Below are positions 43,105 through 49,118 of a DNA stretch of 64,000 bases, in pieces (position 1 is the stretch's first letter; every line of letters begins with the position of its first letter). The stretch lies in the NCBI RefSeq assembly GCF_003334315.1, contig NZ_QOWR01000012.1, one strand, 5' to 3'. The notes beneath the pieces were generated by a model, which searched no databases, had not been told where the DNA came from, and worked only from the letters and a program-made list of their open reading frames with translations. The stretch is from Escherichia coli (lineage in GTDB: Bacteria > Pseudomonadota > Gammaproteobacteria > Enterobacterales > Enterobacteriaceae). Both the position numbers and the translations under genes were made by a program.

Positions 43105-43515
43105 ATGAAGTGGCAACAACGTGTTCGTGTCGCAACGGGTCTAAGTTGCTGGCAGATTATGTTGCATTTACTGGTAGTGGCGCTGCTGGTGGTGGGCTGG
43201 ATGAGTAAGACTCTGGTTCACGTCGGCGTGGGATTATGCGCACTGTATTGTGTCACGGTAGTGATGATGCTGGTGTTTCAGCGCCACCCCGAGCAACGCT
43301 GGCGTGAGGTGGCAGACGTGCTGGAAGAGCTGACCACGACCTGGTATTTTGGCGCAGCGCTGATTGTGCTGTGGCTGTTGTCCCGCGTTCTGGAAAACAA
43401 CTTTTTGCTGGCAATTGCAGGGCTGGCAATCCTTGCCGGCCCGGCGGTAGTGTCTTTGCTGGCGAAAGATAAGAAGTTACATCACCTTACGTCTAAACAT
43501 CGCGTACGCCGCTGA
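43105..43515 (+). CDS. ybhQ: Inner membrane protein YbhQ
   Basis: 136-aa hydrophobic ORF; 3' end overlaps the convergent ybhR. Confidence 0.82.
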
Positions 43516-44583
43516 CCCTGTCGTGGCCGTTATCACCAGTAGCGGCCACAAACTATTCCACACAATATCCAGACTCGCATCCTTCAAATAAATCTGCTTG
43601 GTAATGTCCGTAAAGTGGCGAATAGGGTTAATCCACGTCAGGTTTTGCAGCCAAACTGGCATGTTTTCCACCGGCGAAACGTAACCGGAAAGGAGAATGG
43701 CGGGCATCATAAAGACAAACACGCCGATAAACGCCTGCTGTTGTGTCGAGCAGAGTGATGAAATCAACAGACCGAATCCCACCAGCGATAAACCGTAAAT
43801 CACCATCGTAAAGTAGAACAGCGCCAGCGATCCGGCGAAGGGGATTTGATACGCCCAGATACCAATCGCCAGCACAATGGTGGCCTGGAAGGTGGCGACA
43901 ATTAACGCCGGTACGGCTTTGCCGATGAAGATCTGCCAGGTGGTGAGCGGCGAAACCAGTAGCTGATCGAGCGTACCTTGTTCACGTTCGCGGGCGACGG
44001 AAAGTGAAGTGACGATCATTACGCCGATAGTGGTGATCATGGCGATCAGCGACGGCACCACAAACCATTTGTAGTCGAGATTCGGGTTATACCAGTTGCG
44101 TACTACCAGCTCGCTGTTGTTAGGTTTCGGTTTTCCTTCCAGCAGCTCCTGCTGATAATTTTTGACGATCTGTTGCAGGTAGTTGGCGGCAATCTGCGCA
44201 CTGTTGGAGTTACGCCCGTCGAGGATCAACTGCAAAGGCGCGGTCTGGAAGGTATCCAGTTTGCGCGAGAAGTCAGCCGGGAAACGCACCAGTAGTAACG
44301 CCTTTTGTGTGTCGATGGTTGGGCGGATCTCCTGTGGGCTTTTCAGCAGCAGCACATGAGTAAAGGCGCTGGCGCGGGCAAAACGTTGGGTCAGCTCCAC
44401 CGAATGCTCGCCGTTATCTTCATCGTAGATGGCGATGGTGGCGTTAGTCACTTCCAGCGTGGCGGCGAACGGGAACAGGATCACCTGAATTAGCACGGGT
44501 AAAATCAGAATCGCGCGGGTTTGTGGTTCGCGCAGCAACGACTGCAACTCTTTGCGGATTAACGTCCATAAGCGATGAAACAT
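43477..44583 (-). CDS. ybhR: ABC-2 type exporter permease
   Basis: 368-aa membrane ORF; last gene of cecR-ybhG-ybhF-ybhS-ybhR. Confidence 0.9.
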
Positions 44584-44593
44584 GCTCTTCTCC

Positions 44594-45727: not shown

Positions 45728-47456
45728 TGCTATGCTCCTTATCCCAGTCGTGGATCAACTGAATAAAGGCTTGCTCCATGGTGGGATCGGGTTGCTCGTC
45801 GTTGGCCGACTGCGCTTTCAAATCATCCGGCGTGCCGCTGGCAATTAATTTCCCACGGTACACCAGGCCGATGCGGTCGCAATATTCTGCTTCATCCATA
45901 AAGTGAGTGGTGACCATCACCGTGACGCCTTTCTCTACCATGCTGTTGATATGCAGCCAAAATTCGCGGCGGGTGAGGGGATCAACGCCGGACGTTGGTT
46001 CGTCGAGAAACAGAATGTCCGGTTCATGCATCAGCGAACAGGCCAGCGCCAGCCGCTGTTTAAAACCTAATGGCAGTTCATCGGTCGCGTGGGAGGCGAT
46101 ACTTTTCAGGCCAAATGCCTCGCTCATACGGGAGATTTTTTCGTTCTGCGCCCGACCGCGTAAGCCATACACACCAGAGAAAAAGCGTAAATTCTGTTCG
46201 ACCGTCAGGTTGCCGTAGAGCGAAAATTTTTGCGCCATATAGCCGAGATGCTGGCGCGCTTTACCGGAACTCTCTTTCAGATCCATCCCCAGCACCAGCG
46301 CCTGGCCGGAAGTCGGCACCAGCAAACCGCACATCATCTTAAAGGTGGTCGATTTACCCGCGCCGTTTGGCCCCAGCAAACCAAAAATCTCCCCACGTTT
46401 AACGGCAAAGTTGACGTGATCGGTGGCGGCAAAATCACCAAATTTCTTGGTCAGTTCTTTCGCTTCGATCACCGTCTCGCCGGGTGTGCCTTCTACCGTA
46501 TGCAATATTGCACCCAGCGGCGATTCTGAGGTTCCGGCACCGCCCAGCAAATCAATAAACGCATCTTCAAAACGCGGCGTAGTTTCGTTGATGTTGATTT
46601 CCGGCATCCCGTCGGCATGGCGAATATCGTCTGGTGTGGCCTCTTTTTTGAGGATCAGACGTACCGATTTCCCCTGAATCATGCCGTCGCTGACCTGCGG
46701 CAGTTTCAAGGCGCGTTGCAACAGTTTGCGGTTGCCCTCGTGTGGACTGGTCATCAGAAAGCTGCGTCCGGCCATGGTTTGTGTCAGGGCTTTTGGTTCT
46801 CCCTGATACAGCAACTCGCCTTCGTTCATCAGTAACACGTCACGGCACTGCTCGGCTTCGTCGAGATACGAGGTACTCCAGAGGATTAACATCCCTTCGC
46901 CCGCCAGCTCATGCACCATCTGCCACAGTTCGCGCCGTGAGATAGGGTCAACGCCGACGCCGGGTTCATCGAGCAGCAACACTTTCGGTTCGCCCACCAG
47001 GGTACAGGCCAGGCCGAGTTTTTGTTTCATCCCACCGGAGAGCTTGCCCGCCAGGCGTCCGGTAAACGGCCCAAGAGACGTAAACTCCAGCAGGCGAGCA
47101 AAAGTTTGCTTACGTGCCTCGCCGGTGACGCTGCGCAAATCCGCGTACAGATTGAGGTTCTCCATCACCGTGAGATCTTCATACAGACCAAATTTCTGCG
47201 GCATATAACCGAGCACGGCGTGCAGCGCGCCGTCGTTTTTGATCGGATCAAAGCCAATCACCGTGGCACTGCCGCTGTCGGGTTTCAGTAATCCCGCCAA
47301 CATCCGCATCAGCGTGGTTTTACCTGCACCGTCCGGCCCCACCAACCCCGTCACATAACCGGCGTGAATGGTACAATCGAGCGGCGCGACGGCGGGCTTG
47401 TCCATGCCCGGAAAGCGTTTTTCCAGGCCGTTCAGCGTGATAACGGCATCATTCAT
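45720..47456 (-). CDS. ybhF: ABC exporter ATPase with two fused nucleotide-binding domains
   Basis: Two Walker A motifs ([16 protein letters not shown]) and two signature motifs; start taken at MNDAVITL (578 aa), alternative start 15 nt upstream. Confidence 0.9.
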
Positions 47457-48447
47457 GTCCTGCCTCGTCACCGAATTGTACCGTCACTGGCATTCCCTGG
47501 CGTAACGCATCATCGGCGTCGGTCACCACAATACGCAGGCGATAGACGAGGTCGGTACGCAGATCCGGCGTTTCGACGGTTTTCGGGGTAAATTCAGCAG
47601 TCGGCGAAACGAAACCAATCTGCCCGTGATACGGCTTGTCCGGGCGACCATCGGTATAAAGCAGCACTTTGCGCCCCGGCTGGGCCTGGTCAAGATTACG
47701 TTCATCAACATAAGCGCGCACCCACACCGGACGCGTTAGTGAAACGGTAAACACCGTGCCACCTTCATTGAGGACCGTGCCTGGCTCCACCGCGCGCGTT
47801 AACAGCGTGCCATCAGACGGGGCTATCAACGTTGAGTCCTGTAAATTCAACTCCGCCTGCGCCAGTTGCGCCTGCGCCTGTTCGAGGCTGGCTTTCGCCT
47901 GAGCGATGTCCTGTTCACGGTTACCGGAACGGTACTGACGCAATTTATCCTGTGCTGATTTCAGCGTTGCCTGCGCCTGGTCGCGCGAGGAGCGGGCATT
48001 TTCCAGGTCATTTGCCGAAATAGTGCGGCTTTTCCACAACCCTTGCTGGCGGTTATAGAAGTTCTGCGCATAGTCATAGGCGGCTTGCGCCTGTTTCACC
48101 GCTGCGGCGGCCTGAGCGATTTCTTCATCGCGATACCCGGCAAGCATCAGGTCATACTGCGCCTGTGCCACCGAAACACCCGCTTTCGCCTGCATCAGGG
48201 CAATCTCATACGGCTTGTGATCCAGTTCGCCCAGCACCTGGCCCGCTTTGATAGCATCACCTTCGTCCACCGCCAGCGATTCAACGCGCCCCCCAACACG
48301 GAAACTAAGATTTACCGTACGAATATCCACGTTGCCATACAGCGTCAGGCCGTTATCCTGGCGGCTTTGATACCACCAGTAGCCTCCGGCAACCACGGCG
48401 GCAAGTACCACTACCGCCAATCCGATCACGACAGGTTTTTTCATCAC
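47449..48447 (-). CDS. ybhG: HlyD-family membrane fusion protein
   Basis: 332-aa ORF with N-terminal TM anchor and coiled-coil region. Confidence 0.9.
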
Positions 48448-49118
48448 TACAAACTCCTTTGCGATAATCCTTGCAAAATCAGGTCGATATGACAGGTCAC
48501 CGTCTGGTTGATCAGTTCGGTCTTTTCTTCATCGAACGCGGTCCAGCCGGTACGTAACAGAATTGTTTCTTTGCCAAGACGGAACGCCAGAATCTCACCA
48601 ATCAACGCATGGGTATGAAGGATCATGCGGGTGTCATTGGCGTCGCAGCCGGTCCAGGCGGCAATCAGGCGTGTCAGGTGGCTGTGTAGCGGACTAATCA
48701 CCTGTTCGTGCACCAGGTGGTAGGCTGCCGTGGGAGAGAGCTGCTCACGGGAGATAAACTTGCTGAGGTTGACGGTGTCATCCTGGGTGAGCAGCTTAAT
48801 CATGTTCCTGCAGGCGCGAAGGATCAGTTCACGGATGGCAACCCGATCAGGCTGTGGTTGCGCGAACAAGCGTTCGGCTTCCTCGGCATGCGGACGGAAC
48901 TGCTCGCCAATAAAATCGGCAATCCACTGGGCGCAGGCGAGGTACAAATCTTCTTTCGAACCGAAGTAGTAGGTGATGGCAGCGATATTCTGCCCGGCCT
49001 GGGCGGCTATCTCGCGAGTGGTGGCGTTCATTCCATATTCACCAAACTGCGCCAGTGCGGCAGCAATCAGCTGTTTTTTCGCCTGTTCACCCTTGATTGT
49101 CATGGCAGGATTATTCAT
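48447..49118 (-). CDS. cecR: TetR-family transcriptional regulator
   Basis: ORF trimmed to [15 protein letters not shown] (223 aa), N-terminal TetR HTH; first gene of the exporter operon. Confidence 0.9.

Follow-up and report, generated by a model that had tools for sequence, protein, structure and literature searches.

The cecR-ybhGFSR locus

The DNA analyzed here (the window) is a stretch of 64,000 nucleotides from contig NZ_QOWR01000012.1 of Escherichia coli (RefSeq assembly GCF_003334315.1). Between positions 43477 and 49118 its minus strand carries five intact open reading frames (ORFs) without internal stops, as seen in the ORF list and the translations. From the head of the cluster onward they are cecR, ybhG, ybhF, ybhS, and ybhR, the genes of a regulator and of an exporter of the ABC type. 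The operon, the regulator, the adaptor, the tandem ATPase, and a proposed partnership with TolC are already known from the literature and from standard annotation. The remaining interest lies in a conserved degenerate ATP site in YbhF, in a tripartite architecture based on a type V transporter, and in the native substrate.

Gene coordinates (Table 1) were transferred to the window from the RefSeq annotation of one E. coli chromosome that is 100% identical. A preliminary description of this DNA had placed the cluster between 43477 and 49118, which coincide exactly with the stop of ybhR and the annotated start of cecR. The names, order, and domain content that it gave for the five genes are borne out by the RefSeq annotation and by family scores. 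With an upstream in-frame ATG included, the ORF stretch runs from 43477 to 49130 on the same strand. The start context ATGAAT at 49118 is kept in four genera (E. coli, Salmonella, Leclercia, and Kluyvera) and the ATG at 49130 is not, which supports the former as the true cecR start.

Table 1. Genes, domains, and control elements of the cecR-ybhGFSR locus in window coordinates (aa, amino acids; NBD, nucleotide-binding domain)
Feature	Position	Strand	Basis
cecR (ybiH), TetR-family repressor and drug sensor, 223 aa	48447-49118	minus	NF008587, RefSeq
ybhG (RefSeq 'hlyD'), periplasmic adaptor/membrane fusion protein, 331 aa	47449-48444	minus	NF002939, Pfam
ybhF, tandem ABC ATPase, 578 aa	45720-47456	minus	two Pfam ABC_tran, TIGR01188
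YbhF NBD1, residues 1-235	46752-47456	minus	motifs
YbhF NBD2, residues 325-578	45723-46484	minus	motifs
ybhS, ABC-2 (type V) permease, 377 aa	44594-45727	minus	Pfam ABC2_membrane_3
ybhR, second ABC-2 permease, 368 aa	43477-44583	minus	Pfam ABC2_membrane_3
Palindrome TCTTAATCAA-N4-TTGATTAAGA, candidate CecR operator	49131-49154	unstranded	inverted-repeat search
-35-like hexamer TGGACA, putative cecR promoter	49175-49180	minus	sequence and conservation
-10-like hexamer CATAAT, touching the candidate operator	49154-49159	minus	sequence and conservation

A megablast search with positions 43300-49400 returned full-length matches of 100% identity to many complete E. coli chromosomes. A match with at least 80% query cover is present in 5424 of the 5426 complete E. 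coli genomes, nearly always as a single chromosomal copy. At least 99% identity is found in 1668 records, and the remainder are 95-99% identical. The cecR-ybhGFSR stretch is core E. coli DNA. The strain of the window is not K-12 itself. The K-12 locus is the same, with gene order, gene lengths, and flanks (ybhQ and rhlE) alike and no difference of substance; the K-12 operon has the gene numbers b0796-b0792.

The reading frames are overlapping or abutting, as had been claimed. A gap of 2 nt separates cecR from ybhG, ybhG and ybhF overlap by 8 nt, ybhF and ybhS overlap by another 8 nt, and 10 nt lie between ybhS and ybhR. A purine-rich stretch lies 5' of the start at each junction. Judged from the gene layout, these short gaps and overlaps and the single TetR gene at the head of the cluster fit one operon. 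A consensus scan found no sigma-70-like promoter inside the cluster on the minus strand. The terminator scan found no intrinsic-terminator-like site 3' of ybhR on this strand, and it is therefore probable that the operon transcript either continues into ybhQ in antisense or is ended by Rho. Terminator-like matches in the whole region number 14, with 6.6 expected; the four on the minus strand (47735, 46576, 45634, and 44656) are weak and all lie within coding sequence. The convergent 3' ends of ybhR (minus) and ybhQ (plus) overlap by 39 nt (43477-43515). An Rfam search gave no RNA family within 43477-49346.

A TetR regulator had been reported ahead of the exporter genes, and CecR indeed scores 416.6 bits against the NCBIfam equivalog NF008587 (cut-off 365). 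Its close homologues carry the Pfam domains TetR_N (PF00440) and CecR_C (PF09209). One predicted protein of 485 residues (P0022) has both of these together with adaptor domains and is an apparent CecR-YbhG read-through fusion. Such read-through is plausible because only 2 nt lie between the cecR stop and the ybhG start.

A palindrome is located 12 nt upstream of the cecR ATG. Its 10-nt arms are 100% complementary and enclose a 4-nt spacer. The palindrome sequence occurs only once in the 64-kb window, where 0.01 matches are expected. When the four genera are aligned over the interval between cecR and rhlE, both arms are invariant; the 4 nt between them and both flanks vary. This pattern makes the palindrome the likely operator of CecR. 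Its position falls in the cecR-rhlE spacer, to which the CecR site has been mapped (PMC12998191). That report and a second one (PMC5934670), citing Yamanaka et al. 2016, give CecR (YbiH) a single genomic target in this spacer. They treat cecR-ybhGFSR as one CecR-repressed operon, so that CecR represses its own genes, and they have it activate rhlE. A crystal structure of CecR and antibiotic-binding data were published in 2025, and cephalosporin and chloramphenicol are reported as ligands that release the protein (PMC12998191; Yamanaka et al. 2016, as cited).

The hexamers TGGACA and CATAAT form a putative cecR promoter. The CTGGAC at the -35-like hexamer is invariant in the four genera. Four of the six positions of the -10-like hexamer (CATA) are invariant as well, and the fifth differs only in Salmonella (CATAGT). 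The two hexamers are 15 nt apart, and a consensus scan that allowed spacers of 16-18 nt found no promoter on the minus strand. With this promoter, the candidate operator would cover the transcription start region, which is the classic arrangement of TetR-type regulators.

ATP sites of YbhF

YbhF has two Pfam ABC_tran domains (1e-30 and 5e-27) and scores 449.5 bits against the DrrA subfamily model TIGR01188 (cut-off 312.45). Hydropathy analysis gives no hydrophobic or transmembrane (TM) segment. NBD1 has a Walker A motif at G40-T47, the Q-loop residue Q87, the signature LSGGM at 139-143, and Walker B residues D163-E164; Ser196 replaces the H-loop histidine. NBD2 has Walker A at G362-S369, Q409, a degenerate signature LPLGF at 461-465, Walker B residues D485-E486, and the H-loop histidine His518. 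In a direct alignment of the two domains (38.6% identity), LSGGM faces LPLGF and S-T-S196-Y faces T-T-H518-F. Both domains keep the Walker A lysine, the Q-loop glutamine, the Walker B Asp-Glu pair, and the aromatic residue of the A-loop. YbhF had been described as carrying two complete nucleotide-binding domains in one chain. This holds for the folds, both of which are full, but not for the motifs, in view of the missing histidine of NBD1 and the altered signature of NBD2.

Each ATP bound by an ABC dimer contacts both NBDs, one of which provides the P-loop, Walker B, Q-loop, and H-loop and the other the signature. Because the signature is contributed by the opposite NBD, both deviations of YbhF fall, by motif assignment, in one composite site, which is formed by the P-loop side of NBD1 and the signature of NBD2. 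The other site is canonical by the same assignment.

An HMMER search of 1.84 billion cluster representatives yielded 109 relatives with tandem NBDs, each of them the representative of a 50%-identity cluster. The full pattern of asymmetry (NBD1 with xSGG and without the histidine, NBD2 with the histidine and a non-SGG signature) is present in 99 of these 109 distant homologues. Taken singly, the H-loop histidine is absent from NBD1 in 107 of the 109, with Ala, Ser, or Pro in its place in 94, and it is kept in NBD2 in 104. LSGGM is kept in NBD1 in 103, and the NBD2 signature is non-SGG in 105. The Walker B glutamate of NBD1 (Glu164) is kept in 107. The asymmetry is also seen in the paralogue RbbA, where ATAY and LPLGI are found, and in Bacteroidota clusters in which the NBDs are separate genes. 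The pattern suggests that YbhF has one catalytic ATP site and one site that would bind ATP and hydrolyze it poorly. For Walker A mutants, the conserved asymmetry predicts that K368A abolishes activity and that K46A does not.

This arrangement resembles that of heterodimeric ABC exporters with one degenerate site (TM287/288, TAP1/2, CFTR, and MRP1), in which H-loop and signature deviations likewise converge on one site. These exporters are type IV and usually lose the Walker B glutamate, whereas YbhF keeps Glu164.

A sequence search of the PDB placed the YbhF domains nearest to the NBDs of ABCA4, ABCA7, ABCA3, and ABCA1 (E 1e-70 to 1e-64). In their best aligned segment, YbhF and the NBDs of RbbA share 41% identity. 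An assignment of YbhF as RbbA was rejected. Its score against the RbbA equivalog NF033858 is 517.9 bits, below the cut-off of 1050, and it is a protein of 578 residues without TM segments, compared with an NBD-NBD-permease fusion of about 910 residues. The two are paralogues. An RbbA-like ribosome-associated role for YbhF was dropped as well, since the equivalog cut-off was failed and no such role is reported in the YbhF literature examined.

YbhF has ATPase activity (Feng et al. 2020, PMC7190983). That paper lists the motifs as present, and its text has no mention of 'degenerate', 'asymmetr', or 'H-loop'.

Membrane subunits, adaptor, and related clusters

YbhS and YbhR match the Pfam family ABC2_membrane_3 (PF12698, which with PF01061 represents the ABC-2/type V permeases) at 5e-39 and 5e-51, respectively. 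They are paralogues, 27% identical over 335 residues (E 6e-45). By hydropathy, each consists of TM1, about 130 hydrophilic residues, and five further hydrophobic segments (TM2-6). The AlphaFold2 (AF2) model of YbhS has a mean pLDDT of 84 and a pTM of 0.72. Its best match in the PDB, at E 1e-13 and a TM-score of 0.66, is Tribolium ABCH-9C with bound ceramide; NosY, ABCA3/4/7/1, KpsM, and ABCG come next. The family matches and this type V fold agree with the earlier proposal of two separate ABC-2 permeases. Judged by the model, the core of the transporter is an ABC exporter of type V and so differs from MacB, which is of type VII.

ABCH-9C and the ABCA, ABCG, KpsMT, and NosFY transporters share the permease fold of the YbhS model, with an extracytoplasmic domain after TM1. 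ABCH-9C differs in being a homodimeric half-transporter without an adaptor or an outer-membrane partner. KpsMT uses a PCP/OPX pair, not a membrane fusion protein and TolC. Sequence identity to these transporters is only about 20%. The type V fold and the ABCA-like NBDs suggest as a possibility, without establishing it, that lipids or membrane-embedded amphiphiles are the native cargo.

YbhG scores 605 bits against NF002939 (cut-off 393) and matches the Pfam domains HlyD_D23, HlyD_3, and Biotin_lipoyl_2. Hydropathy gives one N-terminal hydrophobic helix. The sequence contains no cysteine, which indicates that YbhG is not a lipoprotein. A YbhG search of the 90% cluster database gave only relatives of at least 79% identity, too little divergence for a useful alignment, and adaptors from the fetched loci were added. 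The AF2 model, which was built on an alignment of 23 sequences, has a mean pLDDT of 86. An N-terminal helix is followed by beta strands, four helices (77-202), and further beta strands. We read this model as a lipoyl domain, a long helical hairpin, and a beta-barrel. The best PDB matches in a Foldseek search are EmrA in EmrAB-TolC (8zal/8zar, E 1e-22) and MacA in MacAB-TolC (E 5e-22). YbhG is thus a HlyD-type adaptor by family score, Pfam domains, and model, as had been stated. The motif AEFTPK (residues 283-288 of YbhG) is invariant in the 23 aligned YbhG-family adaptors, including those encoded beside related transporter clusters.

Rare YbhG variants from E. coli and Shigella (proteins P0007-P0046, mostly singletons of 293-321 residues) have in-frame deletions of 9-38 residues. 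Most of these fall in one arm of the Ala/Gln-rich hairpin, for example, at 157-182, 157-194, 118-155, and 94-117. They were probably produced by slippage between AQAQ-type repeats and are probably inactivating.

A scan of a genome collection with a YbhF profile, in which taxonomic sampling was thin, gave at least 79 loci, mostly encoding single-NBD ABC ATPases. Six true YbhF-type clusters, with tandem or split NBDs, are found among the matches listed. The Desulfobacter locus (L005) has genes for a TetR protein, an adaptor, a fused tandem NBD protein, an S-type permease, and an R-type permease. Mailhella (L003) has the same gene set, with the TetR gene divergently transcribed. Three Bacteroidota loci (L004, L006, and L007) have a TolC-family gene, a lipoprotein adaptor gene, separate NBD1 and NBD2 genes, and S-type and R-type permease genes. 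Their split NBD genes (L004, 3433-5208; L007, 4454-6086; L006, 3983-5656) keep the NBD1-type and NBD2-type motifs. A weak TetR-like gene heads L004 and L007 (E 2e-06 and 7e-06, respectively), and none was detected in L006. Three small ORFs without a family match (2834-4450) lie between the adaptor and NBD1 genes of L007. In L006 the NBD1 gene is apparently split into two ORFs, possibly through a frameshift in the metagenome-assembled genome. The sixth cluster, from Sulfurovum (L064), has the fused ATPase and both permeases, and its nearest adaptor gene is 3.7 kb away.

The paralogous E. coli cluster yhiI-rbbA-yhhJ has the same order as ybhGFSR, namely, adaptor, tandem NBDs, S-type permease, and R-type permease. 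YhiI is 29% identical to YbhG. In RbbA (911 residues) the S-type permease is fused behind NBD2, and no TetR gene adjoins this cluster. Counting it, the adaptor gene is adjacent in 7 of 8 related loci. Outside the core of TetR, outer-membrane channel, adaptor, NBD, and permease genes, there are no recurrent neighbors in the loci sampled. Because no further gene recurs beside the cluster, the conserved unit appears to be a self-contained, regulated efflux module, whose synteny gives no clue to a dedicated cargo.

In the three Bacteroidota loci, the TolC-family gene directly precedes the adaptor gene, and the two frames abut or overlap in L004 and L007. The L004 gene encodes two Pfam OEP domains (1.8e-14 and 4.2e-09). 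An envelope-spanning pump is supported independently by this presence of an outer-membrane channel gene inside the cluster. In E. coli, thermal proteome profiling found YbhG destabilized in a tolC deletion, like known TolC partners (PMC6056769), and that paper cites affinity co-purification of YbhG with TolC. A YbhFGSR-TolC complex was proposed by Feng et al. 2020 (PMC7190983). The published YbhG-TolC data, the Bacteroidota synteny, and the EmrA/MacA-like model all support the tripartite, envelope-spanning exporter that the preliminary description had suggested. The pump most likely spans both membranes through TolC. To our knowledge, no structure has been solved for a tripartite pump that is built on a type V ABC core.

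Function, alternatives, and surroundings of the operon

A ybhF knockout has lower minimal inhibitory concentrations and lower efflux of tetracyclines, ethidium, and Hoechst 33342 (Feng et al. 2020, PMC7190983). Expression of ybhF restores tolerance to NaCl, LiCl, and alkaline pH in E. coli KNabc, and a NatA-like region was noted in NBD2 (PMC7190983). In a CRISPR interference (CRISPRi) screen, all five genes were important under carbonyl cyanide m-chlorophenylhydrazone (CCCP), and a ybhG knockout is also CCCP-sensitive (PMC12063145). Experimental evolution in CCCP hit cecR and ybhR (bioRxiv 10.1101/392977). The substrates reported are cefoperazone, chloramphenicol, tetracyclines, ethidium, Hoechst, Na+/Li+, and CCCP (PMC7190983, PMC12998191, PMC12063145). 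They are heterogeneous, and no conserved neighbor points to a cargo; the view that the native substrate is not evident from sequence stands.

We consider it highly probable that cecR-ybhGFSR is a self-regulated, ATP-driven, envelope-spanning efflux module of the E. coli core genome. In the mechanism that we propose, a CecR dimer bound to the palindrome, immediately 3' of the cecR promoter, would repress all five genes, and binding of a drug (cephalosporin or chloramphenicol) would release it. The four structural genes would be translationally coupled. YbhS and YbhR would pair as a heterodimeric type V membrane unit, in which each subunit has an alpha/beta domain that follows TM1 and lies in the periplasm, ahead of TM2, and a single YbhF chain would supply both NBDs as a fixed heterodimer. 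By analogy with the NBD2-permease fusion in RbbA, NBD2 may pair with YbhS. Site 2 (P-loop, Walker B, and His518 of NBD2 with LSGGM of NBD1) is canonical and is predicted to hydrolyze ATP. Site 1 (P-loop and Ser196 of NBD1 with LPLGF of NBD2) would bind ATP, hydrolyze it poorly, and hold or regulate the dimer. YbhG, with its single N-terminal helix anchor and long alpha-hairpin, would assemble into a hexameric tube that sits on the periplasmic domains and docks to TolC. Amphipathic toxic molecules taken from the membrane or the periplasm could then leave the cell via YbhG-TolC.

MacAB-TolC is similar to this scheme in its ATP-driven ABC unit with periplasmic domains, its helix-anchored adaptor with a long hairpin, and its use of TolC. 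MacB, however, belongs to type VII (FtsX-like, 4-TM) and is homodimeric, its fused NBDs being identical, whereas YbhFSR would be a type V (ABC-2, 6-TM) heterodimer with a chain of tandem asymmetric NBDs. EmrA and YbhG both have an N-terminal TM anchor, and their alignment has 316 columns over the 331 residues of YbhG and the 344 of the target. EmrB, however, is no ABC protein and works as an MFS transporter driven by protons.

Several observations weigh against this reading or do not sit easily with it. Site 1 keeps its Walker B glutamate, and residual ATP hydrolysis there is therefore possible. The adaptor gene of Sulfurovum is not adjacent to the transporter genes. Sequence searches of our PDB copy with YbhF, YbhG, and YbhS found distant relatives and no structure of a Ybh subunit. 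For this reason the stoichiometry and the docking to TolC are inferred. The hydrolyzing ATP site, the native substrate, and the route that substrates take are inferred as well. Loss of ybhF is reported to affect cefoperazone and loss of ybhG to affect chloramphenicol (PMC12998191, PMC7190983), a difference that would not be expected of obligate partners. Deletion of cecR reportedly makes cells more drug-sensitive, even though the pump is repressed by CecR (PMC12998191). The Na+/Li+ result was obtained with the ATPase YbhF alone, without the permeases (PMC7190983). The reported phenotypes are small and heterogeneous.

The differing deletion phenotypes and the distance of the Sulfurovum adaptor gene would both fit a YbhG that acts apart from YbhFSR, for example, with another inner-membrane pump, and would leave YbhFSR as an exporter of the inner membrane only. 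We judge this to be quite improbable. The ybhG and ybhF frames overlap, an adaptor gene adjoins all but one of the related clusters, and the invariance of AEFTPK extends to the adaptors beside them. The CCCP CRISPRi screen (PMC12063145) also shows the operon acting as a whole. The salt and alkaline-pH tolerance of KNabc and the NatA-like region of NBD2 speak for another role, in which YbhFSR would physiologically be a NatAB-like system of Na+/Li+ extrusion and YbhG and TolC would be irrelevant to that role. This is highly improbable in our view. It was the soluble ATPase alone that was overexpressed. An ion pump needs no adaptor or outer-membrane channel, yet both are syntenic with the transporter genes across phyla. 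The permeases have large periplasmic domains and the fold of lipid or amphiphile exporters, and the regulator CecR senses antibiotics.

An efflux module with antibiotics among its substrates could also be primarily an exporter of lipid or of another endogenous amphiphile, such as a component of the membrane or the envelope, taken from the inner membrane in the manner of ABCA and ABCH proteins, with drug efflux as a side activity. The ceramide-bound ABCH-9C, the ABCA lipid exporters, and KpsM as matches of the YbhS model, and the ABCA proteins as the most similar NBDs, argue for this. So do neighboring genes: ybhP, clsB, and ybhN come next in E. coli, and Sulfurovum has an LtaS/sulfatase-like gene and a PAP2 lipid phosphatase gene beside the cluster. 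We nevertheless think a primary role in lipid export unlikely. The partner gene that is conserved encodes a drug sensor of the TetR type and no biosynthetic enzyme, and no lipid gene recurs beside the cluster in the other phyla sampled. The likeness in fold reflects the type V class overall, which includes drug pumps such as ABCG2, and no lipid phenotype is reported in the literature examined.

A broader proposal combines efflux with such a cargo, and we put it forward tentatively, as rather unlikely. YbhGFSR, RbbA-YhhJ-YhiI, and the split-gene Bacteroidota clusters, which bring a TolC-like gene of their own, may represent a widespread tripartite class. Its type V (ABCA/ABCH-like) heterodimeric core would have obligately asymmetric NBDs, with one catalytic and one regulatory site, and would extract lipids or membrane-embedded amphiphiles from the inner membrane and export them via TolC, antibiotic efflux being a by-product.

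In the RefSeq annotation of the identical chromosome, the cluster is followed by the convergent gene ybhQ and, beyond it, by ybhP (EEP-family phosphatase/nuclease), clsB (cardiolipin synthase B), and ybhN (lysyl-phosphatidylglycerol-synthase-like membrane protein), at 40973-42972 and beyond. A lipid-related operon thus adjoins a pump with an ABCA/ABCH-like core in E. coli, and this linkage is not kept in the other phyla sampled. On the other side, rhlE (49347-50711) is divergent from cecR, and ybiA and dinG come after it. Between rhlE and dinG, the window has ybiA (50943-51425) and a repetitive extragenic palindromic (REP)-type element (Rfam ES036, 50785-50827). In the loci of Salmonella, Leclercia, and Kluyvera (L082-L084), dinG directly follows rhlE.

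The rhlE-proximal half of the cecR-rhlE spacer (49215-49346) is almost invariant in the four genera, more so than the cecR-proximal part. Inverted repeats at 49309-49318/49337-49346 and 49236-49243/49274-49281 could bring the sequence immediately ahead of the rhlE start codon into a paired form. The predicted folding is only slightly better than that of shuffled sequences (z = -1.74). The region may be a structured rhlE leader.

Rfam matches elsewhere in the window are unrelated to the pump operon. They comprise a Moco riboswitch (103.6 bits, 35388-35532), two tRNAs and an RtT element at the window start (1-280), and the REP-derived elements naRNA4 and ES036 (24335-24405, 56062-56132, and 34082-34123).

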